NCBI GenBank assembly: GCA_973895155.1
Contig: OZ316894.1
Coordinates: 17,762,563 to 17,826,562 of the forward strand
Direction of reading: 5' to 3'
DNA length: 64,000 nt
Source: Marsupella aquatica
Taxonomy: Eukaryota; Plantae; Marchantiophyta
A model generated the notes under the pieces. It had not been told where the DNA came from. It did no database searches and worked only from the letters and a program-made list of their open reading frames with translations. Position numbers and translations under genes: made by a program. This document shows positions 31,948-60,205 of this stretch, piece after piece (position 1 is the stretch's first letter; the number at the start of each line of letters is the position of its first letter).

Positions 31948-32260
31948 ATAATGATTGTCTGGGTGACTACAGTAGCTATAAGTATAGATAATTTGTCTGG
32001 GGTGTTACTATAGTAGCTATAAGTATAAGATAATGAGTGTCTGGGGTGTTACTACAATAGCTATAAGTATTTGATAATGAAGGTCTGGGGTGTTACTATA
32101 GTAGCTTGTGGGGTGTTACTACAGCAGCTATAAGTATAGGATAATGACTGTCTGGGGTGTCACTACAGTAGCTATAAGTATAGGGTAATGACAATCTGGG
32201 GTGTTACTACAGTAGCTAAGGGTGTTCCTACAATAGTTATAAGTATAGGATAATGACTAT
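31948..32260. repeat. ~41-bp minisatellite, about 7 copies
   Basis: gtctggggtgttacta(c/t)agtagctataagtata.gataatga repeated in tandem. Confidence 0.92.
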
Positions 32261-33060
32261 TTGGTCTGGGGTGACTATTTGGTCTAAGGTTACTAGCCTG
32301 TAACCCTCTCCCATGCGTCTGGGGTGAATTTTTGGTCTAGGGTTACTAGCCTGTAACACTCTACCAGAAAGTGAGAAAAGCTGGGGAAGCATTTCTAAGG
32401 TGTTGGGGAGCTGGGTTCAGGAGCTGGGTTCAGGCTAGAATCGCTGCCCAGACCTCCGTTATAGTATGTACTGTAGTTAGTGTTTGGGTTACTAGTGGGC
32501 AAGAGAATACCAAGTGCCATTGAAAATGGTTTCACATTAGTAACGGACATTTTGCACAGAAATTACATATAGGATAATGGCACTCCGGTATGGGATTACT
32601 ACTCTCTGACCAGAAAGTAAGAAAAACTTGGCTGGCAGTAATGGGAAGATTTTCTGAGCTGTCTTGGAGTAGGGTTCAGGCTAGAACCCTTGCCCAGGCC
32701 TCCATTATAGTATGTAATTAGTGGTTGAAAAAGGTTACTTTCAGGCTAAAGATTATGGGAATAGCATGCCAAGTACCTTTGAAAATGGTTACACACCAAT
32801 AACCTGCAGTTCCGCACAGAAATTACATATAGGATAATGGCAGTCAAGTATGGGGTTACTAGCATGTGCCCAGAAAGTAAGAAAAACTTGACTGGCGGCA
32901 ATGGGAGCTTTTCTAAGCTGTCTTGGAGCAGGCTAGAACCCTTGCCCCGATCTATGCCGATATAGTAGGTAATAAGTATCCGGAAAAGGATTACTTCGGG
33001 GCAAGAGATTATGGGAGTAACAGGTACTTCCAAACATGATTACACATTGGTAACCTTCAT
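32260..33060. repeat. Degenerate ~240-bp tandem repeat, about 3 copies
   Basis: ccagaaagt.agaaaa..., gcacagaaattacatataggataatggca and ggctagaaccct.gccc recur. Confidence 0.75.
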
Positions 33061-36700: not shown

Positions 36701-38139
36701 TTTTCCTGGAGTCATGGTTGACCATAGTCTTTCTGAAAAATGTGGTTGGTCACTCCATGAAGGAAAAACTCGTTACAATGCCTGTGATAAGAACATCTGA
36801 CAAAAAATACTGACAAGGGGCCTATTAGGTAAGAGAAGTTACCTAGGGGCCTATCAGGTAAGGTTCACCAGGGGGCCCATCAAGCATATATCTCCTCCAA
36901 GCGAACAAGAAGAAACCAAACCACACTACAGTATGTACAATCAAAGTTTGCCCTTGACATTTGCTCAGGAGAAACTTGAGGGCAGTCTGGACCAGAACAT
37001 TTGACCTTTGACATATGTCTCTGTCATAGACGACAGAATATGACCTGTGGTTCACCCTTCTCAGCCTTTGGTTAGTGTAATTTAAAAGCATTATATATTT
37101 ATAAAAACAAAAAACTAAGTGAACTATTATGAATGGGAACATCTTTAGTGATAGAGTGATTAAAAGTTATATAATTGTATTGTATGTGAAATGAATAATT
37201 TATACTGAAACTTGTGGTTTTAAATGTATAGGAGTGACTGAAAGACTACTCAAATTTGAGCAAGATCAGCTTTTCTCAGGAGGCCTTGTTTGCTTGTGTT
37301 TGGCTTCATGGAGTTTGCTATAAGAGGGGCCAAACTTTTTGAAGTTCTGTAACCCATGTAGGGCAAGTGAGGCTGATCCTAAGGCCAAAGTAGTGACACA
37401 CTTCATGGTCTTCATTGACAATGTCTGGCCATTTATGAGGCTGTCACTATGTCTAAGCTGACCTGGTCAACTGTGAGGACGGCCCGGGCCAACTTAAACA
37501 CCCCTAGTAAGTGCATTGACACCTAACTAAGTGCCACCTTGATAAGTGGAATACTGCTATACACAATCATTTTTGTTACATAAAAGAGTAATCTAAAGCA
37601 TTTCAATGATGTAGAACACTCCAGATCTAATAGAAATTTGTGTCGACACCACTAACATCTGACTCCCTGAACCTACCTTGAACACACATGCAGTCAAGTA
37701 GTGGCAACTACACTCTCTCCTCCATGCATCTTCACATATGATGATTTAACCCTGGATGTAGTCTCCTAGTGGATGCTCTAAACCCTCTTATAATCTATGT
37801 CATCACTGGCCTCTACATGATTTAGGAAACCCTCACAACACCATAAGTAGTCACTAATGTACTCAATCAAAGTAAAAAGTCGGAACCAAAAGTGACAATT
37901 TTTTCCTCCCACTATTTCTGGGACAGTGAAGGTGTAAGTATAAGTTTCACTTGAGAAGACTTGTTAGGGTCTGTTTGACCCAATAAAGAATCTCTTGAAA
38001 GACTTATTTGAGGGGCAAATTATGGGCCAAATACTCCAAAATCTTTCAACAAAGTAAACCTTTCTGTAAAGTGGATCCCTCCGTTTTCTTCTCTCTTTGA
38101 TCAAAAACTAGCATGAAAAGGTAGTACGGCCTCACGGGT

Positions 38140-38780
38140 ATTTTGTGGCACCTTTGGTGTGCTCTCGGCTGACCCTTTGGAACTGTCGTCTGGTGGACTT
38201 ACTCTTGTACCTTAGTAAGGGAATCTTTCAAGACAAAATAAAGGGGGATGAAAGGGTACTTCTCAATCTGTTATCTACACATGGGGTTAGATATTTAACT
38301 ACTTTTTGCGTATCCCCCTTTTGTGCCAAAAAGCTTGGTTTTTGGTGGCACGTTTGGTGTGCTCTCTTTTGAGCCTTTGGAACTGCCCCTTGTGTACTTC
38401 CTGCTTGTACCTTCAAGGGAATCTTTGAAAACAAGATAAAGGGAATAGTTTTAGTTAAGAAAGTTGAGGAAACAGGTATGAACACCAAAAAGCGGGATGA
38501 AAGGGTACTTCTCAAACTGTGATCTACATTGGGGTTAGATTTAATACTTTTTGGGCATCAATTCCAGTGCCAGAAAACCTTGGTTTTGGTGGCACATTTC
38601 GTCAGCTCTCGCTAATCCCTTAGAGCTGTCTTCTTGTGGACTTCCTGCTCCTTTCGTCAGCTCTCGCTAATCCCTTGGAACTGTCTTCTTGTGGACTTCC
38701 TGCTTGTACCTCAATAGAGGAATCTTTCAGAGCAAACTAAAGGGAGTAGTTATAAAGTTTGAGCAAAACAGGTGCGAACA
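38140..38780. repeat. Degenerate tandem repeat, about 3 copies
   Basis: ttggaactg.c..c.tgtg.acttcctgcttgtacct...ggaatcttt...aaaggg and gggatgaaagggtacttctcaa recur. Confidence 0.75.
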
Positions 38781-39425
38781 GCAAAAAGCTTTTAGTTCCT
38801 CTTTCTTGGTGTTTAGAGGTTCTCTATTGCTCACTTTTTTTACGTTTGGTTTTGTCCACTTGGATCCTCTTTTGTTTGTTCATTTGTACTCTGTTTGGTC
38901 CCTTTCTATAAAAATTGTGTATATTTTCTCCAAAAGAGTGGGGTGAGAGGGTAATTCTCAAACTGTCGCCTTTCGTTGGGAGGGGGGCGGATGTCGCAAG
39001 GGGTTCGATATTAAAATACTTTTAGTGTGCCTCTTTCAATGCCAAAAAACTTATGATCCTTCTTTTCTTGCCCATGATTAAAGGTTGACAGTGCAACTGT
39101 TTTTTAAAAATTGTGAGACTGCCTAGTCAGAGAAGCTGCACATGCCACACGGCACGAAACAATTGGTCCATCCGACATATATTATTGGAGCCTGTGTTTA
39201 GTACTAGGATTAATTAGATATTGGGCTTTGCATAGGGTAGGCATAATTTGAATGCAAAAGTTTGGGGGGAGATATGGGGGGAGATTGAGGTGGTGGTACA
39301 AGGGTTTTGGGAGTTATTTCAAGATTGTGTTGGACCAGGTGTTGGACAAGGCTGGGGGCAGAATATCCTGTACATTCTATAGCTTTTGACCAGCTAGGGA
39401 TTTGACATGAGGCCACCACGCATTG

Positions 39426-39666
39426 TGTTGAGCATAGACGACATTCGTAACGGCAAGCCCATGAACCATCCAACGCACAAGAGTCGACCCAGAGAGATAC
39501 GTGGTTCACCTCCACATGAGGCTACGTCCACGGGAACACACAAGAGCTTTACTGCACTCTAGGCCGACCGGCCATACCAAGCATCCACAGCACAAGCTCT
39601 CCCTATCTCTCAACTAGCTCCGTAACAATGAGCCTAAGTTCCTCCAGGGTCTGGCATCAACCCTGG
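39426..39666 (-). repeat. Copia 3' LTR, first part (241 bp), interrupted
   Basis: Matches 50663-50903 except for 2 substitutions. Confidence 0.96.
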
Positions 39667-42600
39667 TGTGATGCCTAGACAGGAATCACTCGGCCAGTTA
39701 AGTGGGTAAAGCAGGAAGGCACCCTAGGAACACCTTAGTATAGGGACAAAACAAGGAAAATATAAACCATTAGGGGCAACCATGGAACCCGGGCCGAGGC
39801 CGGAGGTAAGGACGCTGAGGGTGAAAACTCGATTAGGGTTAGGGCGCGTTAAGCGTCGGCGGCTAGGAAGGATCAACGGGAAGAAGGACCGGCAGAGGAG
39901 AGGGGTAAGGAGCGCTTGCACGAGATGGTGGCTCATTTGCGAGCACGAACTAGGCAGACGACTACGGGAGGCCAACTACTGTCAGCTGCTTAGGCAAGCA
40001 CTCGGGGAGAGAGTAGATACCGACGATCGACCTAAGGAGGGTATGAGCAACATCAATCAAGCGGCACATTTCTGGGGATGCCTGTTCGAACGGGCAACTG
40101 AGTACATCAAGACTTACGAGGACGAGGAATCAGAAAGGGCAGCTCGAGAATGGCAGGAGCTCGCTCGATTGTGGGAGCTGCAGAAGACGGCTTTCTTAGG
40201 AGGCGAACTCATCAAGGACGAGTTCCTGTGGACGCCTACCTCCAATCAACTCGACGATCTTCTGTTTTGCAAAGACAGCGTCGTCGGCATCCGAGAGGCC
40301 ATCAAGAACTGCAACAACATACACTGGGAATTAAAGGATAGCACGGAAAGGTGGACCCAGGCAACGGTGCTAGGAGAAACCTCCACGGCAGCAGAGATGA
40401 AGAGGAAGGGAGCCGTCAACGATGAAGCCACCCCGGCAAAAAGAACGAGGTCGGCGGCACCAAAGAAGCCAGCCGAGCAGCAGAGCAGGAGGCAGGGAGA
40501 AGCCGAAGAGGAGGAGGTCGATCCCATCAAGGCCATTCCAACCAGGGATGACACCTGGAAAGGCTGGGCGGCAACCCTACCGGTGGAAGTGCAACTACAT
40601 TTTGCACGGGAGGAGGATGCATGCTTTACGGCAATGCAGACCAAGAAGTATCAAGGCTTCATGGCCGGATCCAGCTTAGAGGCCTTTGTAAGATTACCAT
40701 GGCTAAAGCCGGAGGTACCGGAGTCAGACCTATTAGAATTCGTGCGGTCATGGGAACCCGAGACCAATTGCACGAGGATATATGGGAAGGATTTCTATCT
40801 TACTCCCAAGGTAATTGCCGAAGTGTTTGGCTTGCCGATAGGCAATAAGACCAAAGTTGATACCAGGAAGACCTTGCCTGACAAGGAGTTCCGGTCGTTC
40901 CCCGGGCCATCAACGAAGAATGGCTTCTTCCGGAACACCTGCACCAACCCGCACATAGGAGAGATGATCGACTTCTTGCGGGTGACCATGCATTGTAACT
41001 TGCCGAGGGCAGAGATCGGCAAGGCACAGGTCTATCTGGCAGAAAGGCCAGACCCAAGCCGGGACTACAACGGGTACCTCCTCAACCAATTGAAGAAGAT
41101 CTTAAAGGAGGAGCAGCAGGTAATCGGCATGGGGAGCGTGTCGCGGCTTGGCTATCACATGCCGCTGTTGTGCCGGTATGCCAGAGGTCAGACTTTTGCC
41201 CCAGTACTTCCCCTGCAGGTAAGGGCACCCGAGGAAGCTCCAACGCCGAGGCCGTTGGCTGAGAAGCCTCAACCACCTGTTAGCCCTACGATCGAGCAGG
41301 TGTCTAGGCCCAGGAAGGAGGACTTGCCGATGCAGCAACCAGGCATGCAGAGTCTGCTGAAACTACTGAGGAAAGAAAAGAAATCAGCATCGGCAACAAC
41401 AACGGCAACGGCAACAATGCAGGACACTACTACAGAGGTAGGCCTACACCGGCTCACAAGAGAAAACCCCTTTGTTGGAGACAAGGAGAGAATCAGGCCG
41501 GAATCCAAGCCAGGTGTTCGAATGTATGTGGGAATCTCAAGCTCCGAATCTGAGGCAGAATTGCCTGAAGCTCCTACCGACGAAGAGGAGAGGGAGAAGC
41601 CGGACGTCCAAGAAGTAGAGGAGGCAGTGGAGGACTGCAGCCATGATAATTCCGGCTATGGGTCGGACCATCACGTTCCAGGAGTAAGGACCTGTGGCCG
41701 GTTTGTCCCCACACTTCCAAGGGTAGTGCAAGGGGACCCCAACCAGCAGAGTAGCCCTGAGTCTCCCCCACCAGATGTTGCTCCCCCGAGCTTTGACGGC
41801 ATAAAACAGATGGTGCAAGAATTTCAGGAGCGAATCAGGCAAGAAGAGGAGGCAGCCATGGCTAGGGAAAAGGATTTACCAGGAGGAGATTGGCCGGAGG
41901 ACATCAGGCGGCTAGCCAAAAAAGGAAGCAAACCTCTAGCCACGATTGAAGAGATCCGCAAGACGGCTTGGGAGCAGAGGCCGCGATGGGCGATGCCGAT
42001 CACTTCTACTTACTCCACCTACGCTAAGAATAGAGCCATGGAGTATGGTGAGATGTGTGGGGAACTTGCGCTCGGCATCTTTGGAGAGGAGTTGGAGGTA
42101 GGACCCTTTTTCCATAGGGAGCAGTTGGAGAAGCACCAATTAGAAGAAGCGGTGGCTTTAGAGAGAAGCAAGAAGGACGAGGTCATTCGGCGGCTTAGGA
42201 GGATGGAAGCCGAGATTGAAGATCTAAGGGCGGCCAAGAAAGCCCAAGATGAACTGCGGATTAAACGGCATGAGCTGAACATCATGCAGGGGCAGTTGGA
42301 CACCGTGCAGGCTGATAATCAGAATATCAAGGATAAACTGACTCAGACGCAGGGAGAGTTGGCCGACACGATCAAAGAGAGGGAGAAGTGGAAGCAAGAG
42401 TTGAAGAATACAGAGGAGGCCCACATAACAGCCAACAGCCGGGCCATGGCGGAGACCCAAAGAAAGGAATGGGCGTTGAAGGGGGAGCTCGAGAAAATCC
42501 GCGGAGCCCTTGAGCAGAAGGAGGCCGAGTTAGGGAAATCCTATCAAGGGATTATGGCGCTGCAGCAGGAGCTTGCGTCCCTGACGGCCAGCTTCAAGGC

Positions 42601-44329
42601 CGACCTAAGGGAGAAGGATGAGATGCTCGATCAGACTTACGCCAAGATGAACCAGATGGAGTCTGTCATCATTGCAGAGCTCGACAAGGAGCTAAGAGCA
42701 ACCCGGGAGGAGAGGACTACCTTGAAACAAGAACGGGAGGAAGCCCAGAAGGAACTAGAGGAGGCGTGCAAGGACCTGGATGAGACCCAGGAGGAGTTGG
42801 AGGAAATCACGAGGAAGATGGAGAACCTCCAGCGGCGGGCCGACAACCAAACGGAGCGGCTGAAGAAACAAGCCGCAGTATTTAAGTGCTTGTCTTCATC
42901 AGGCCCAACTCCAATTGGGGCAACCAAGTTACCAGGAGTGGTACTGGCCGAAGAAAAAGCCGCGCCACCTGCACCAGTGCCGGAAGTAAGTGGGAAGGGG
43001 AAGGGACCAGCTGCCGAACCAGAAAAGAAGAAAAAGCGGAAACCTTCAGGGTCAAGGAGTAATCCAACTCCACAAGCCGTGGTGACCAAGGAGGTAGAAC
43101 CAGCACCATCCTCCGACATGAATACGGCAATAGATCCCGCTATCATCACAGGTGGGGGTGGTGCGGCCCAAGCCGAACTACTCAGTAATGAGGCCGGTAT
43201 TCCAGATCCGCCTCTTGAGCAGGCCGGGGAGACCGTAGCCGAGGCTGAGGCCGTAACCGATTCCCGAACCGATGCCGACGCCGATGGTGGACCCAGTCAG
43301 GCCGATGGAGAGTTGACTTAGTCAAGGGCAGGTAATCTGTCAGAGAATGAACCTACGGCAGTGGCTGAGGAGGAAGCGTTGGGGGCGTCCATTAAGGATC
43401 CTCCACCGGTGTCGTGACGGTGCAAGGGCGCCATTCCTTTTAGGGAGGGCGGACGTGGAGGGAGGAGGCGTGAGTGGGCAGGGCGGGCGCTGATCTCCAA
43501 GTTTAGGATTAGGATCAGGACCAGGAGCGGCCCTGACACTTAGCTTAGTGGGATTGCGGTTCCACTGGTAGGAGCAACACTTGTGCTCCTGCCTTGCTGT
43601 ACATAGGTAGATTCGGGCAAGTAGATTACTGTTAGGTAGATTAGGCTTACGATGCAAAGAATGGCGGATCCACTACCAGGATAAGTACCTGGGCAGCGGG
43701 GAGCTCAGGGCCTCTTCTTTAGCAAGTTTTTAGTTTGCACCAGCCGGGCTGGGATCAAGTAGGACGAGAAGCTCTCGGTTAGTCATACAGTGACCCTTGT
43801 GTATATTCATGTTTCCTCATGCCTAAGAGCTGAATAGAGTTGGCCTCACGGCTTAGTTCGTAGAGCTTGTGTATGAGATGTACTGTTTGTATGGCAAGTG
43901 CATGGTATGACTCAGTCAGAATGAGTCATTTTGCTATTTGTGTGTCGCATTAACTTGTGTGAAGAGTGCCCACATCAACCAAAAGGAAGGAAAGTAAGCA
44001 GGGGAGTGAGAGTTGGATGTGTCGAGCTGAGAGAGGTCTTAGCGGCTTAACCAAGCCTATTGGGGATCATTCCGGCGACGGAATCCAAACATACCTAACA
44101 AGACGGAGGGGAAGATAGGGGAAGGCCTAGATTAGGCCGGCTACGTATCTCATGACCCGATGAAGGATCTATCCAGTATATGTGTGTAAAATGTTAACAG
44201 TAGTAGTAGAAGGTTAGCAGCGTCCCATGCCGCTAAGCCGTGGAAATGGCCTCGCCAAGCGCGAAACCTGCGGGAATCGGCTTGAGCTGGGGGGTTTCTT
44301 GGGTTTAGGGAGCCATGGGACGCACCACA
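39667..44329. mobile_element. 4663-bp nested insertion with LTR-type ends (candidate ORF-carrying solo LTR)
   Basis: Starts TGTGATGC and ends GCACCACA (7/8 inverted match). CCTGG TSD at 39662-39666 and 44330-44334, single copy in the intact LTR. No internal repeat of either end found by eye. Confidence 0.9.
39782..43321 (+). CDS. 1179-aa intronless TE-associated protein: PMD/plant-transposon-like motif, Pro-rich and acidic linker, long coiled coil, basic NLS-like patches
   Basis: Uninterrupted 3540-nt ORF. LLEFVRSWEPETNCTRIYGKDFYLTPKVIAEVFGLPIG at ~40730-40843, E/K/Q/L heptad-rich region at ~42120-42880, KRKG..PAKRTR and EKKKKRK. The true start may be the ATG at 40043. Confidence 0.8.
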   Translation: MEPGPRPEVRTLRVKTRLGLGRVKRRRLGRINGKKDRQRRGVRSACTRWWLICEHELGRRLREANYCQLLRQALGERVDTDDRPKEGMSNINQAAHFWGCLFERATEYIKTYEDEESERAAREWQELARLWELQKTAFLGGELIKDEFLWTPTSNQLDDLLFCKDSVVGIREAIKNCNNIHWELKDSTERWTQATVLGETSTAAEMKRKGAVNDEATPAKRTRSAAPKKPAEQQSRRQGEAEEEEVDPIKAIPTRDDTWKGWAATLPVEVQLHFAREEDACFTAMQTKKYQGFMAGSSLEAFVRLPWLKPEVPESDLLEFVRSWEPETNCTRIYGKDFYLTPKVIAEVFGLPIGNKTKVDTRKTLPDKEFRSFPGPSTKNGFFRNTCTNPHIGEMIDFLRVTMHCNLPRAEIGKAQVYLAERPDPSRDYNGYLLNQLKKILKEEQQVIGMGSVSRLGYHMPLLCRYARGQTFAPVLPLQVRAPEEAPTPRPLAEKPQPPVSPTIEQVSRPRKEDLPMQQPGMQSLLKLLRKEKKSASATTTATATMQDTTTEVGLHRLTRENPFVGDKERIRPESKPGVRMYVGISSSESEAELPEAPTDEEEREKPDVQEVEEAVEDCSHDNSGYGSDHHVPGVRTCGRFVPTLPRVVQGDPNQQSSPESPPPDVAPPSFDGIKQMVQEFQERIRQEEEAAMAREKDLPGGDWPEDIRRLAKKGSKPLATIEEIRKTAWEQRPRWAMPITSTYSTYAKNRAMEYGEMCGELALGIFGEELEVGPFFHREQLEKHQLEEAVALERSKKDEVIRRLRRMEAEIEDLRAAKKAQDELRIKRHELNIMQGQLDTVQADNQNIKDKLTQTQGELADTIKEREKWKQELKNTEEAHITANSRAMAETQRKEWALKGELEKIRGALEQKEAELGKSYQGIMALQQELASLTASFKADLREKDEMLDQTYAKMNQMESVIIAELDKELRATREERTTLKQEREEAQKELEEACKDLDETQEELEEITRKMENLQRRADNQTERLKKQAAVFKCLSSSGPTPIGATKLPGVVLAEEKAAPPAPVPEVSGKGKGPAAEPEKKKKRKPSGSRSNPTPQAVVTKEVEPAPSSDMNTAIDPAIITGGGGAAQAELLSNEAGIPDPPLEQAGETVAEAEAVTDSRTDADADGGPSQADGELT

Positions 44330-44334
44330 CCTGG

Positions 44335-44437
44335 CTATATGCACAATAGCACTACCGCTAACATTAGCTAAGTCCTAACCCGAGTTAGACTAACTATGGT
44401 TAGCTCATGAGTCACAAGACTAGAGCAATATCTAACA
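44335..44437 (-). repeat. Copia 3' LTR, second part (103 bp)
   Basis: Matches 50904-51006 except for 1 substitution. 241+103 = 344 bp. Confidence 0.96.
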
Positions 44438-44448
44438 AACTCCCCCTT
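44438..44448 (-). promoter_or_regulatory. Polypurine tract of the copia element
   Basis: Minus-strand AAGGGGGAGTT immediately precedes the 3' LTR TG. Confidence 0.9.
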
Positions 44449-44644
44449 GACTCTTGTCTTGGGGACTAGACTAAATGCTACCATATGGAATCCTCAGCGG
44501 GAAGTTCTAGACAATCACCAAACCAGGTCTCCCCCTAAAAACCACAAGGGTTAACTAAGGGTTAACTAGAACTAAGTCGTAGCCAAACAGGAATGAGTAA
44601 TCCATATACAAATAGTCACACATTGCTAAATAACTCTACTTGCA

Positions 44645-47600
44645 CTACAACTGCAAAACCTGCAAAGTAGCACGGTGTCTTGAGAAACTCTCCAAAGGAA
44701 TCACTTTGGTAAAGGCATCGGCGGGATTGAGCTTTCCATCAATCTTGACTAGCTCAAAAGTTTTATCAGACACTGCTTGCCTGATAAAATGGTACTTGAT
44801 ATCAATGTGCTTCACCCTGCTATCCATCACCTGGTTAGCAGCCAAGTGAAGAGCACTCTGACTATCACAGTTTAGAGTCATTTTGCCATGCTCTAAATCC
44901 ATCTCCGCGATCAACTTGTCCAACCAAATTGCTTCCTTTGCTGCTTCTGCTGCTACAACATACTCTGCTTCTGTAGTAGACTGAGATATGCACTTCTGCA
45001 AGGTAGATTTCCAACTGATACATCCTCCTCCAAGAGTGTATACAAACCCAGTTGTAGACCTCCTTGTATCCAGACAACCTCCATAGTCAGAATCTACATA
45101 GCCAACTAACGTTCTATCTGATCTGTTATTAAATAGTAATCCATAGTCCTGTGTACCCTTCAGATACTTGAGAATCCACTTCACAGCTTCCCAATGTACC
45201 TTCCCTGGATTTGACATGAATCTGCTGACCTTGCCCATCGCTAGGGCCAAGTCAGGCCTAGTACAAGTCATCAAATACATCAGACTGCCTACTGCCTTCT
45301 CATAAGGAATCTTAGCCATCAGACCTTTCTCCACAGCATTCGTAGGAGAGAAAGCCGATGATAACTTGAAATGTGAAGCTAAAGGAATACTCACTGGCTT
45401 ACAGTTCTCCATGTTGAATTGTGCAAGTACTTTCCTCGCATACTGGCCTTGACTCAAGCACAACTGTCCAGTCTCAGAGTTCCTAAAAATCTCCATCCCT
45501 AAGATCTTCTTGGCCTTACCAAGATCCTTCATCCTGAATTCAGCGCTCAATTTTGCCTTGAGACTGTCAACCTTAGATTGATCTTTAGCCACAATTAGCA
45601 TGTCATCCACATAGATCACCAGAATGATGAAACCAAATACATCATTCTTGATTGATTTCGTATACACACAAGGATCATACACCATCCTTGTAAAACCTTG
45701 AGCAAGCATGAAATCATCAAACCGCTTGTTCCACTGTCTGGAAGACTGCTTCAATCCATACAAGGATTTGAGCAATCTGCAAACTAAGTTCTCTTGGCCC
45801 TTCTTCATAAAGCCTAGTGGCTGTCTCATGAAGATCATCTCTTCCAAGTTGCCATAGAGAAAAGCAGTAACAACATTCATCTGATCCATCACCAGATTAA
45901 GAAACACAACAAGCTGACACAAGATCCGAATTGTGGAATACTTAGCCACCGGTGAAAAGACCTCATTGTAATCCACTCCTTTCTCCTGAGTGAATCCCTT
46001 GGCAACAAGCCTTGCCTTGTAAATCTTATCTCCACCCTCTGAAAGACTGTCCTTCAACTTGTAAATCCACTTGCTGTCCACCACTTGCTGACCTCTTGGA
46101 AGCTCCACCAGCTCCCAAGTCTTGTTGTCACTCAAAGATTGCAACTCCCTTTGCATTGCTGCATTCCACTCATGCTTCTGCTCTGAAGCACAAGCCTCAC
46201 TATACGAAGAAGGCTCTCCTTCTTCCAAGATCAAAGCCATATCATCTTCATCAGGTGCAATGTCAATATCATCTAGCTTAGATGAGTCTGCCCATTGACC
46301 ATACCTGGTAGGAGCACTAGTAGAACGACTGGAAGTTCTTCTAGTAGATGACTCAGGCTGATCTGTTGCTGCTGCTGGTTGAATTTGAGGTACCCCAACA
46401 ACAATTTGCTCCTCTTGTTCCATCACAGGAACCAGCTCCAAGCCCGGAGCTTCTCCATCTCTCCTGTCATGAACTGCATCATGACTAATCTCCCCCTCAA
46501 CCCGGTCCGGGATGGGAGATTTCCCCTTGTCAGTCTGGGAGTCCTGAGAACTCTCCCCCTCCTTTGATGATCTGGACTCATTAAAGGACACATCTCTACT
46601 GATAATTAACTTATAGGTTACTGGATCTCATAACCTATAACCCTTCACACCTTTCTGATAGCCAAGGAAAATGCACTTCTTTGACTTGGACTCCAGCTTG
46701 GATCGAAGCTGAGAAGGTGTAAGCACATAAGCATCACATCCAAAAATCCTCAGATGTGAGTAATCTGCTGGACGCCCGTACCTCATTTCAAATGGCGTCT
46801 TGAATCCAATAGAACTGGATGGAGAAAAATTTACCAAATAAGCTGCAGTGTTGACAGCTTCAGCCCAAAACTCATGTGGTAAGCATGATTGACTCAACAT
46901 ACTCCTCGAGCGGTCCAATAGTGTTCGGTTGAGTCTCTCAGAAACACCATTCTGCTGAGGAGTATAACTTGTTGTGAGATGGCGGGTAATCCCCTGCTCC
47001 TTACAATACGTTCCAAATTCCCCGGAATTGTATTCACCGCCATTATCCGATCGAAGATATCTCACCTTATTACCAGTCTGATTCTCAACTCGGGCTTTCC
47101 ACTCCTTAAAAGTGGCAAAAACATCAGACTTATTATGTAGAAAGTATATCCACACATACCTTGAGTAATCGTCTATGAACGTGACATAGTAAAACCGTCC
47201 AGAATGTGAGGGAGTAGGGGCTGGACCCCACACATCACTATGCACATACTCAAGTACCTCCTTGCTGGTGTGAGTTCCAACTCTGAAGGGTTTCCTGTGC
47301 TGCTTCCCTAGCACACAGTGCTCACAAAATTCCAACTTACAAGATTGCAAATTAGAAAGTAATCCTTTCTTCTGAAGAATAACCAAACCTTTTTCACTCA
47401 TGTGGCCCAAACAGAAGTGCCACAGCCGGGCCGTCTCCTCATGAGATAAGGTTACATTGGCTTCATCACAAACTACACAGCCCTCCAAAACGTATAGATT
47501 GCTATGTCTCTTTCCCTTCAATACAACTTTAATACCAGTTGAAACCTGAAGGACACCATTACCAGAACTCCACTGATGGCCATTTGCTTCTAAAACTCCA

Positions 47601-48919
47601 AGTGAAATGAGATTTTTCATCATCCTGGGAATGTGTCTCACATTCCTCAACGTTCTTACAGCACCATCAAACATATGAAATCTTACAGATCCAAGTCCAA
47701 CAACTTGACATGGGATTCCATTTCCCATCAACACTTACCCGTTGGAAACCGTGTAAGAACTGAAAAAATCTCTCCTAGAGTAAATGTGAAAAGTACATGC
47801 ACTATCTAGAATCCAGTCATCACTACCTGGATTTGACACTACGTTGAGAGCATAACCTTGGCATCACAATATGTCATCATCATCGAGTAAATCTACCTCA
47901 TGCGAGCTCGATGCCGCGTTAGCAGATGCAGTAGGGTTCTTTACTCGACAATCCCTTTTCATGTGGCCTGGCTTGCCACAATTCCAACATGGAAGAGGCT
48001 TCCTCTCTTGCGATTTCCCTCTGGATTTAGATCTCCCCCGTGATGTAGATCTAAACCTGTTCTGCCCATTTGAGCGTTGCGCTGCTCTTCCCCTGTTCAC
48101 ATTGAGCGCAGTGCCAGAAGAAGATGCTGTCTGTGATTGACCCAACTTCTTCTGAGCATCATCAGACAGCAAGGAGCTCACCACCTCATTATACGAAATG
48201 GACTTCAGATCTCTATACAAGAGCACATGTTTCAAGCCCTGATATGACGGCGGTAAGGAGCTTAGCAGAAGCAAGGCCTTATCCTCATCTTCAACTCCTT
48301 TTCCCAGGTTTGACAGATCCACCACTAGACTGTCAAATTCATCTAGATGATCCTGCATCTTGCTCCCTTCCTTGAGCCTGAGGCTCATCAAGAGAGACTT
48401 CTTGTACAGCCGGTCTGACGCATCTTCTCGGTAGTACTTCTCTCTTAGAGCCTTGAACAGTGATGCGCAATCCGCATAATCATCCAGCTGCTTGATGATG
48501 TGCGGCTTCAGATAAAGCATCACTACATTGACAGCAATCACCTGCTCCTGTCTCCACTGTCTCACAGAATTCTCCTCCTCTCCATCATACTGCTCTCGCG
48601 AAGAGAGTAGATGAGCTAAGCCCATGGCCCGAAGAACACCCTTCACTTGCTTCTCCCAGAGCAAGTAATCAGTACGACCATCGTACTTCTCCACCTCAAA
48701 CTTTACTCCTCCGAATCTAGCCATCTCCCTCTTCTTCCCCACTACCGATAGCTCTGGTAATAACACAGCTTCCTCCATTGCACGCCGCACCGGTGATCGT
48801 ACCGGTGTCACTAGTTCTTCCTCAAACGGTAGCAGCTCCTCCTCAGACTCTCCGTCTGACCGTCGCGATCCTGAAGCTCCACCGATGCCAATTCTTCCAG
48901 TATCCTCCGAGTCACTCAT
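44645..48919 (-). pseudogene. Copia gag-pol polyprotein in a single frame broken by three in-frame stops
   Basis: Gag KFEVEKYDG..YLLW and CWNCGKPGHMKRDC, protease WILDSACTFH, integrase HHCC plus VHSDVWGP/LRSDNGGEY/PQQNGVSER/KGYRL, RT YKARLVAKGFTQ and YVDD, RNase H GYVDSDYGG/STTEAEY. Stops at 47864-47866 (TGA), 47738-47740 (TAA) and 46628-46630 (TGA in GYRL[W]DP). Confidence 0.95.
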
Positions 48920-50648
48920 ATGAAACAATCACGAAAAAACGTCTTTTTTTGAAACTTCTCATAAAACTCAAAACTCAATACCACCGCGTAGCCCACGAAG
49001 CTAGGAGTCCAATACTGAAAGCCGAAATCAAAATCGAAATTTGACGGAAAAGTTATTCAAATTTCGGTCGGGGTGGGTAAAACCTTGGGAAACTCCCCCG
49101 TTTTGACCACCTCGGAGAATAACCAAAATACCCAGTACAACCCTTCGTCGGAATCGCAATGTGATCGGTGCGCCTCGTTGCTAACTCCAGTGGCAACGTT
49201 CTTGCCAAAAAAGAACCAAAAAAAAGTTACCATTTGGCGGACGGAATCTTTGTCGGACGGCCGAAAAACAGCTCTCTGTTTTTCGGGAATATTCCCGCAC
49301 AGTACAGCAGGTCTCACAGGGGGCCGTTCCCCCTGTCAGAGCGGTTAAAACGGAGGGCGGCAGGTCCCGGCACCAAGAGGAAAAACAAGAGGAAAGAAAA
49401 AAGCTTTAAAAAGGGCCTTAAGGGGGTCAAAACGCCCTTTATACCCTAAAATACAGGTATATAAAAAAAAGGGAGTAGACGCGTATCGGGCCGGGCATTT
49501 ACAAAGGAAAACCAGGGAAAATGGAAATTTAAAAGCACCCTAAAGGGGGTGATAAGCCCCTTAAATCGAAATACACCCCGTATGGGGTCGCAATGTACAG
49601 AGTCCGGGCGTAAGAGGGGCGTACAGGGTGCGGGGGCCGGGCAAGTAGGGGTGCCGGATACGGGGTGCCAGGGACAAACCCTCGCCATGCGCCGGGGAGG
49701 GGCGTCGGCAGCTTTGGAGGGCCGCGAAAGGGGTGGGCAGGCGAGCGCAAGGCCGGAGGTGGGGAGGCGGTCGCGAAGGGCACCCGGCGAGCGCCCGGTC
49801 GCGCGTGAGGCGCCGGCCGGCGCTGCGTGGTGCGACTAAAAAAAAACGCGAAGGCGGGGGGGAGTATCGGGGTCGGGGGGAGTCCGTGTGTTTATACACA
49901 CGATTGTGTGTATAAGCACACACAAGGGGTTAAACCCTTTTAAATGCAAAAATGACCCCCCGGGAAAACAAAATAAAAAACTCACCTTGATAAGCTGTTG
50001 TTTGAGACAAGGAAAGTGAATGCCGCCGACGGTAAAAGTGGCCGAATTTCACCGGCACAGTCTGCTGCTCCAGCAGAGACTAAACTTTTCGTCGCGTCGC
50101 CTTCACTCCACGTGAAGTGCCAATCCCGGGCTCAAAACGACCGCCTCGCCACGATCAAAACGTTGAGCCGTAGCACTTCACGTTTCTTCCACCAAGTCGG
50201 ACGTCACGAAGGGAAACCCGGTTCAGTTGAGAACAAGCTCCATAGCTTGTGAGAAAACCTGAACGCCTCCTTCACTCGTCACGACACACTCGGTAACAAC
50301 TCGGCCGCAATTCAACTAATGAAATGACCAGCTCGCTTCAAGCTTCAACTTGAGCTAAAATGTGCGATCCCTCCCGCACCGCACGGCTCACACCGTTGAA
50401 AAATGCGATCTCTGGTCTCTCCCCTAAAAAGCCGTCGAACACGAATAAAACCTGAACGATGCAAATTTCAATTCCTCCGCACCACGGATACCGATCAGCG
50501 AGTTCTAACCACCGTTAGAAAGCCCTCTCACTAACCTATCCGCACAGCCACACACATTCGAGTTTCGTGCGATGAAACTCTGAATGTACCATCGACAATG
50601 AACGCTGGAAAAACCTATCACGAAAAAACCTCATCACCTCCCAGGCAT

Positions 50649-50660
50649 GCTCTGATACCA
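50649..50660 (-). promoter_or_regulatory. Primer binding site (tRNA-iMet)
   Basis: Minus-strand TGGTATCAGAGC, 2 nt inside the 5' LTR. Confidence 0.95.
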
Positions 50661-50662
50661 CT

Positions 50663-51006
50663 TGTTGAGCATAGACGACATTCGTAACGGCAAGCCCATG
50701 AACCATCCAATGCACAAGAGTCAACCCAGAGAGATACGTGGTTCACCTCCACATGAGGCTACGTCCACGGGAACACACAAGAGCTTTACTGCACTCTAGG
50801 CCGACCGGCCATACCAAGCATCCACAGCACAAGCTCTCCCTATCTCTCAACTAGCTCCGTAACAATGAGCCTAAGTTCCTCCAGGGTCTGGCATCAACCC
50901 TGGCTATATGCACAATAGCACTACCGCTAACATTAGCTAAGTCCTAACCCGAGTTAGACTAACTGTGGTTAGCTCATGAGTCACAAGACTAGAGCAATAT
51001 CTAACA
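50663..51006 (-). repeat. Copia 5' LTR (344 bp, intact)
   Basis: TGTTGAG...CTAACA, adjacent to the PBS and followed by the CATTG TSD. Confidence 0.97.
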
Positions 51007-53355
51007 CATTGGATCTAGGTATGAAGGTTTGAGGAGGCCATCAAATGCATTAAGGACGAAAAGCAATATCCAGGCTAATCAATGCTGTGATTGAGACTTG
51101 AGTTTGAGGGGGCCATTGATGTTTGGGAAAACTTTGTGAGGTGCAGATTCATTTGGGTGAGCTCAATCTGTGGGGGAATCTGTGAGGCATGGCACTCATG
51201 ACAGAATGACTTATCTTAGTTAGTCACTTCTTTGGTTTAGTAGTGTAATAATATGTTAATTGACCTTAGGAAGTTTCTTTCTCCGTGGAAACTTTGCATG
51301 TATACATTTTTTTCTACGGTATATCTCTCACAAATTAATGTACCTTGCATGGTTAACTTTATAAATGATATTCAAGATGATTTTGAAGGTGTAAAATGCA
51401 AAATTATAATACCTTCAAGTGGCATATTTCTTGTCCAAACTGAAGTGTTTAGGAATAACAGGAAAAACATTAGGGCTCCAAAAAATTAGTAAGGGGTACT
51501 AGAGAGGGGAGGGGGGGTAGGCATGTGTATACCACAGGCTTTACTTTACAAAGGCTGGGGCCCTAGGGAACTGGATATGTAGAATGAACAACATTTAGTG
51601 AGTAAAAAACATTAATTGGAGTTATAATGGTATGGAAAATTCATTCACCTGGTGGGCACTTGCCACACTGACCTACACTAGCACAATACAATGTATGCTG
51701 CTGCTTTTTTTCATCATGGTGGGTGTTTGCCACATAACACAATAGAACATATGCTGCTGCCTTTTTATGTGCAACTATCATCAAATGATGTACTATCTGT
51801 AGACAATTAAAATATCAATGATTTAACTAGCATTTAGTGACAATGTTCAGACTTTGACTTCCTGACAACTAGTCAGAACTGGACCATCATCAAAAGACAA
51901 CATTATGTGTCATGTGAATTGGATATCTAACATAGACAAAGAAAAATACAAACATTGTCAACTATAGTATTGATCCTCACATCACTAGTGTCAAGACTAG
52001 TTTCACAAGGACTATATGAGTTCTGTTGTAACAAACTATATTGTGATCTTTTGGAAAGCAAGACCCTTGAAGGCATTTATCAACTAAATCTTAAATGGTA
52101 TACCAACTGGTTTATTAATATTAACAGAACTTTCTATGACATATCTTTGTTGGGCCGGGGGCCCTTCATGATATTTGTAACATTTCTTCTTGTCACATTT
52201 GCACCACCTAAGATTGCCCCCACGGGAAATCTGCGTGAATTTCATGTGGGACTAGGTGCTATTTGGATGATTTGCTCAAACTAATGCACACAAAGTCCAA
52301 AAAATTAAATTTATGAGAACTGAAGATTGACAAAATGGGCAAATGCATTTTAGTCCATGATTGTTTTTGATTATTTGCTCACATCAAGTGCCTTATTCTT
52401 GATGGCAATATGGTAGGTAGAGAAACTTACAAACTCAGGGGTTTCACTTCCACAAAAATGACACATCACATGCGACGAAGGGTAGGGTCATTTTATTGGT
52501 TCTAAGGGAAAAACTTAAAATTTTTCTCATAAGAACAATACTTAGGGTCTTTTAAATCCAATTTGGAGACTTATAAGAACATTGTGAACTTTTTAATCAA
52601 AATTTTGGAATATTCCAAGTTATAGGGGTTAAAAGTTTGAGGGGGTCCGAGGCTTAAAAACGTTGCAAGTGATGGGGAGGCCTCCACATAGTGAGACCCC
52701 CAAGCTTACAAACAGCTATAGATCTGAAGGTCCCGTTCTGAAGTTCACATCACAAGCAGTCATACTCAGCCATATACTTTCAATAAATCTAAAAAAGTAG
52801 CTATTGTAACTAAGTTAGTTTATTCCTCTCACTGGTAATCAGGGTTAAAGCTCAATGGACCGAGACATTGTCTTTGGTCTTCTTTGGTGCAATATAGGTG
52901 GCAAGACCATATTTGTCCATGATGCTATGAGGGACACTACTGTAAGTTGAGGTTCTCTCTTGGCCCTCCATCACAAAGATTACGGGTTGACCAGTCTTAC
53001 CATGGTCCATGATAGTCGAAGTACATTTGCAGATGTTGTGATTGTCAACCCTTTAATTTTGCGGCAAGCAAGGCGCCAAGACATCATTAGGATCTTGATC
53101 GGGATAGCAGAGGTGGGGGCACCAGCGACATGGGTGGCAGTAACAAGAGTGGCAGCAACAAAAGAGGTAATATGTTGCAAGAGTTTCATCACATGTACTA
53201 TTTGTTTTGACCATGCATTTTTGCCACCAAATGCAATGATTGGGATTACTGACAGCACGAGCTCAAGCTTGAGCAATCTGTTGTAGATCTCTTGCTGTGT
53301 TGTAGATCTCTCACCGTGGATACTATTGTGCCTCCATAGGGGCTTGGGGTATAAC

Positions 53356-57650: not shown

Positions 57651-60205
<2,555 letters not shown>

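Follow-up and report, generated by a model that had tools for sequence, protein, structure and literature searches.

Genes that lie within a long terminal repeat (LTR) are known from retroviruses, as exemplified by sag of mouse mammary tumor virus and by nef in the U3 region of lentiviruses. In plants, 93.4% of LTR elements carry 5-bp target-site duplications (TSDs) and LTRs reach approximately 5 kb (PMC6317226), those of Ogre measuring 1.9-6.5 kb (PMC6431247); the latter work, in the part devoted to them, handles long LTRs as non-coding, and the relevant sections of three reports place additional open reading frames (ORFs) in the internal region of the element (PMC7264820, PMC6317226, PMC11963269). 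Tat elements have been reported from liverworts, mosses, and ferns, in passages that mention no LTR ORFs (PMC13468544). A full-text literature search, phrase-bound and run on a limited collection, returned no report of an ORF within a plant LTR. The subject of this work is a mobile unit of 4663 bp that was detected in a 64,000-nt stretch of the liverwort Marsupella aquatica (contig OZ316894.1, positions 17,762,563 to 17,826,562; hereafter “the window”), and which is probably the LTR, either solo or collapsed by the assembly, of an Athila/Tat-like Ty3/gypsy family that carries an accessory gene inside this repeat.

The unit (39667-44329, forward strand) lies within the 3' LTR of a copia element (39426-51006, reverse strand), identified by LTR comparison, ORFs, a primer-binding site (PBS) located 2 nt past the 5' LTR, a polypurine tract (PPT), and its own CATTG duplication. 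As an earlier note on this DNA had claimed, the pentanucleotide CCTGG is present as a single copy in the intact 5' LTR, and stands on each side of the insert in the 3' LTR (39662-39666 and 44330-44334). Once rejoined (39426-39666 plus 44335-44437), the interrupted LTR measures 344 nt and differs from its partner (50663-51006) at only 3 positions, so that the insert must have arrived after a recent copia insertion. The first letters of the unit are TGTGATGC and the last are GCACCACA, giving TG and CA termini; the left terminal motif (39667-39674, forward strand), which resembles an attachment site, is inverted-complementary at 7 of 8 bases to the right one (44322-44329, forward strand), and the match fades after approximately 10 bases. 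The absence of an internal copy of either end, also claimed previously, was borne out by a self-BLASTN search for hidden repeats, in which no direct repeat, terminal or internal, was found in the unit (best off-diagonal E-value of 0.064), and no second copy exists inside the window. These are the traits of a solo LTR, namely TG..CA termini with a short inverted repeat and a TSD that directly flanks a single repeat, and the existence of the unit within a young copia LTR is confirmed. Motifs that resemble telomere repeats are present close to both ends (39832-39844 and 44302-44310).

A single LTR at this site could nevertheless conceal a gypsy element that is complete, the assembler having merged its two LTRs of 4.66 kb into one on account of their near identity; the ORF would still be located in the LTR, but the copy seen here would be no genuine solo LTR. 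The very recent date of the insertion speaks for this scenario, as does the fact that none of the run contigs aligned bridges either junction at this locus independently; nothing direct speaks against it, since exact TSD copies would arise by collapse as well. Collapse is allotted a small part, well under half, of the probability given to the LTR reading as a whole. The empty form of the copia LTR target site is present in public sequencing runs X1, X2, X5, and X6.

Public sequencing runs also reveal that the unit belongs to a highly repeated family. Part of it is present in 13 of 15 listed runs, which bear several organism labels, and five of these hold at least half of its words; none of the listed runs that hold it is an RNA dataset. 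Contigs of four runs were aligned to positions 39200-44800, X4 and the small-share runs X7 to X15 being set aside, and every bin of the unit was covered in all four. Summed depth over the insert ranges from 155,000 to 903,000 in X1 and from 244,000 to 1,430,000 in X2, against 129 and 139, respectively, over the left flank, values that do not amount to copy number and are read only as a sign of high repetition. In a second alignment, restricted to positions 44270-44357, depth falls off at 44329 in all four runs (X1, X2, X3, and X5), and contigs leave at 44329-44333 into other sequence in at least 29 (X1), 61 (X2), 39 (X3), and 5 (X5) cases; in addition, the match of one X6 contig ends at 39667 and is followed by 106 nt of other sequence. 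A sharp end that is joined to many differing flanks indicates that the unit is not a one-off deletion. Among the 12 of 23 rows listed, six of the seven indels within the unit fall in the 1008 nt of non-coding sequence on its 3' side, and the seventh, located in the ORF, measures 3 nt.

These observations bear on the possibility that the unit arose by internal deletion or rearrangement from an element in which, as in Athila, Ogre, and Retand, the ORF was flanked by two short LTRs. The position of published extra ORFs in the internal region, as given in the portions of PMC7264820 and PMC6317226 that concern them, would agree with such an origin, as would a purine run (approximately 43985-44008) that is followed by TG and looks PPT-like by eye. 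However, the two ends share no sequence, coverage of the unit is complete in each aligned run, and no high-depth joint that reorders it is found among those listed; the deletions in the rows listed are single contigs with depths of 86-381, as opposed to summed depths above 150,000 in X1 and X2. The one-off internal deletion that the earlier note had named beforehand as its refutation is thereby removed, the whole 4.66 kb being the family unit in run contigs, and a deletion origin of any kind is largely refuted and very improbable. Internally deleted derivatives of 381, 413, 787, 2209, and 2954 nt, located within 39873-44166, were seen in X1 and X2, some of them common to both.

The sequence that follows the right end bears on whether the unit is an LTR or was never one. 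The loose letters past 44329 agree at a level of 0.37-0.44 in three deep runs, which implies that most right flanks differ. Despite this, GCTAGAT occupies positions 9-15 of the consensus in both X1 and X2, and, without any appeal to a tRNA motif, the consensus lines of X1, X2, and X5 coincide in 7 of 30 columns (P of 0.002-0.015). When compared at an offset of 4 with a 17-nt motif that we take to be a PBS of the tRNA-Asn type, the consensus matches at 13 (X2), 10 (X5), 8 (X1), and 2 (X3) letters, as counted by hand from the run consensus; the corresponding binomial P values are 1e-5 for X2 (0.018 after an assumed 1440 tests), 0.003 for X5, and 0.04 for X1. In simulations where 10-15% of contigs carried one shared continuation, agreement was 0.36-0.38 with a mean of 10-12 matches out of 17, and this PBS-bearing share reproduces the 0.37 agreement of X2. 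Loose stretches that start at 44329 have a median length of 30 (X1) and 52 (X2), as opposed to 255 at 44330, a difference that would follow if part of the contigs returned to a common path. Assignment of the motif to a given tRNA found no confirmation in the literature, and no tRNA was present at 37 viral loci that bear the PBS-like pattern. The Asp PBS printed for FIDEL likewise starts with TGGCGC (PMC2844528), and Asn PBSs are listed for 12% of Athila, 15% of TatII, and 4% of Retand elements in the relevant part of PMC6317226. Taken together, a PBS-like consensus 4 nt past the right end in three of four runs argues, with moderate force, for a true LTR in the forward orientation.

The main rival holds that the unit is a stand-alone entity, never an LTR, whose gene is cargo and which would be copied, or cut and pasted, by a trans-acting enzyme, either a transposase resembling an integrase or the integrase of a retrotransposon, that reads its TG..CA ends. 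Short inverted ends and the lack of an internal repeat suit such a unit, and in the listed joints of X2 the ends abut internal sites of further copies (44329 with 41166, 41733, and 43484; 43063 with 39667), a pattern compatible with nested copies. Integrase-related DNA transposons with TG..CA-like ends do exist and, as far as the description in PMC6839031 extends, GingerRoot and Ginger share with the unit LTR-like termini and an occurrence outside of seed plants. In the same source, however, GingerRoot has 6-bp TSDs (6-8 bp being the range required for membership) and terminal inverted repeats of 100-150 bp, while Ginger1 and Ginger2 have TSDs of 4 and 6 bp, respectively, and neither such TSDs, nor long terminal inverted repeats, nor an integrase-like transposase are found in the unit. 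GingerRoot is ruled out by the 5-bp TSD and the approximately 8-bp inverted match, and Ginger1 and Ginger2 by the TSD and by the lack of an integrase motif or Pfam match. Neither a transposase nor its remnant lies inside the unit, and the PBS-like signal shared by three of four runs also runs counter to mobilization in trans.

Several points weigh against the LTR reading, and some of them lend weight to its rival. No full-length parent with the LTR-PBS-gag-pol-PPT-LTR layout was recovered, and no locus emerged when the protein, its homologs, or the 22-nt right end were compared with collections of metagenomes, viruses, and prokaryotes (in one scan, one stretch matched). Right flanks are mostly heterogeneous, as described above, and X3 lacks the PBS-like signal, which was itself spotted after the fact. 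Runs may share loci, and junction contigs that overlap the unit by only 30 nt probably fell outside of the alignment. Of the two options that the earlier note had left side by side, coding LTR or trans-mobilized unit, the former is thus favored through the PBS-like signal; the latter, since no parent has been recovered, retains a minor but appreciable share of the probability.

The closest known counterparts of the proposed coding LTR are found among the Ty3/gypsy non-chromoviruses of plants, namely the Athila and Tat/Ogre/Retand elements (OTA superclade). Solo LTRs of these groups also have TG..CA ends and 5-bp TSDs, the length of the unit falls within the range given for the longest LTRs, and the PBS-like signal would be of a type that such elements use, if its tentative assignment to tRNA-Asn is accepted. 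The difference resides in the fact that 76% of the unit consists of one intact ORF, whereas the extra ORFs of these elements, in the descriptions cited above, sit on the polyprotein's upstream or downstream side within the internal region. The retroviral sag and nef genes do share placement inside an LTR; nevertheless, they belong to animal retroviruses, are far shorter, and encode unrelated proteins.

The ORF (39782-43321, forward strand) encodes 1179 amino acids from its first ATG, as had been claimed, and is far longer than the longest stop-free run in 500 shuffles (377 codons); the true start may be Met88, at position 40043. No gag, reverse transcriptase, or integrase motif was found in the unit, in agreement with the earlier note, nor was a protease motif; zinc knuckle, HHCC, YXDD, and D[ST]G motifs were likewise absent, and no Pfam family matches the protein above cut-off. 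Its layout comprises a conserved globular core (amino acids 248-479; 40523-41218), an acidic, proline-containing linker, a predicted long coiled coil (approximately amino acids 780-1040; 42119-42901) detected by composition and by sub-threshold coiled-coil Pfam matches at amino acids 847-995, and a basic patch in which KKKKRK (43025-43042) is a candidate nuclear localization signal, all encoded on the forward strand. A transmembrane segment, as expected of an Env-like ORF, was not found (peak 19-residue hydropathy of 0.83).

Homologs exist, and those that are named come from a liverwort. The core region is aligned by 16 of 17 phmmer matches, the best with 40% identity and an E-value of 1e-47; the remaining match, P0017, which contains helicase-associated repeats, was spurious and was dropped. 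A Calypogeia-type family, which likewise has a C-terminal coiled-coil-like tail, is matched with an hhalign probability of 96.6, and word-index protein searches returned none of near length and none shorter (longer proteins lay outside of these searches), and one Calypogeia protein when a profile was used. An N-terminal likeness to Calypogeia-type proteins, noticed by eye, was not significant, 66 and 632 of 1000 shuffles scoring equally high. Thirteen of 30 listed substitutions in the ORF are synonymous, as compared to the 34% expected, a difference that is not significant.

Beyond these homologs, the core shows weak links to an established group of accessory proteins borne by transposons. Among named Atlas clusters, Transposase_32 and ATHILA lie nearest (0.88-0.89, and 0.83-0.84 for a homolog), and the group formed by PMD (PF10536, Ogre), Transposase_28 (PF04195, Retand), ATHILA ORF-1 (PF03078), and Transposase_32 (PF20167) offers the closest Atlas neighbors as well as the same type of protein, an accessory factor carried by a transposon and built from a globular core plus a coiled coil. 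The window protein departs from this group in that none of 20 aligned members has a Pfam match, and neither it nor its homologs match Transposase_32, ATHILA ORF-1, or PMD in particular, in the position of its ORF inside a terminal unit, and in its liverwort homologs. In fold comparisons, the VANC21-DNA structure of VANDAL21 (PDB 9LNK) headed a ranking of 48,161 chains with each of the two models, at weak fold scores and with alignments of 161 and 169 residues, as opposed to at most 103 in any other row; sequence searches of the PDB and Foldseek searches of the PDB and BFVD gave no match. VANC is structurally similar to the host protein MAIN, and coiled coils are predicted to mediate oligomerization of VANC as well as of the Athila domain, as stated in the relevant part of PMC13547354. 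The likeness to VANC21 and to host MAIN/MAIL1 extends to the core-plus-coiled-coil layout, but the unit lacks the non-coding tandem array of a short motif that accompanies VANC-type anti-silencing, no 7-mer occurring more than three times. The protein is likely to reside in the nucleus, to oligomerize, and to bind DNA or chromatin as a member of the PMD/ATHILA/Transposase_32/VANC group that acts on its own family and, granted the LTR reading, anti-silencing is the role that we tentatively favor.

Under the LTR reading, a parental element made up of PBS-gag-pol-PPT between two LTRs of 4.66 kb would have been reverse-transcribed from a tRNA primer and integrated at this site, with a single LTR left behind by LTR-LTR recombination or by assembly collapse. 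The sole TATAAA of the unit (39761-39766, forward strand) is a candidate promoter, and a T- and GT-rich stretch (43801-43980, forward strand) is a candidate region for 3' processing of the ORF transcript; judging from these motifs, the gene could be expressed from any LTR copy, be it in a full element or alone. The encoded protein, with its core, linker, coiled coil, and basic patch, and no membrane segment, would then act on its own family as a DNA or chromatin factor. In its most extended form, this scheme has a gypsy lineage of non-seed plants moving a VANC-like chromatin regulator into its LTR, such that each solo LTR that the host's main route of deletion leaves would remain a full cassette expressing an anti-silencing factor and the counter-defense would outlive the element, a proposal that we regard as unlikely.

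Other features of the window include the host copia itself, whose gag-pol (44645-48919, reverse strand) is a single frame with three stop codons (approximately 47866, 47737, and 46630) despite the near identity of its LTRs, and whose leader between PBS and gag (48920-50660) is unusually long (approximately 1.7 kb) and partly GC-rich. Two X2 contigs join the copia LTR end to an LTR start (44437 to 39426), which suggests a tandem or two-LTR junction somewhere in this run. Degenerate repeats with a period of approximately 200-250 nt (38123-38974) lie just left of the copia insertion, and at 31954-33054 a tandem array with a 44-nt unit precedes further degenerate repeats, of approximately 250 nt. 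Downstream of GA-rich microsatellites, an ORF (57651-58313, forward strand) encodes a FAD_binding_4 domain (E-value of 4e-20) and resembles the first exon of a cytokinin oxidase. An Rfam search of 39400-51100 and an ARAGORN scan of the window gave no match.

Solo-LTR formation is viewed as the means by which plants inactivate retrotransposons and reduce their size, and LTRs are regarded as devoid of coding sequence. If three-quarters of an LTR do indeed consist of one conserved gene, this process would leave behind many expressible cassettes, which annotation pipelines would miss because, in those considered here, extra ORFs are classed by their position relative to the polyprotein. Accessory proteins of the PMD/ATHILA/VANC type would also be extended to a lineage that is probably outside of seed plants, and the unit would provide a self-contained system in which to test whether the extra ORFs of retrotransposons counter silencing, a question presented as open in the corresponding passages of PMC7264820 and PMC11963269.

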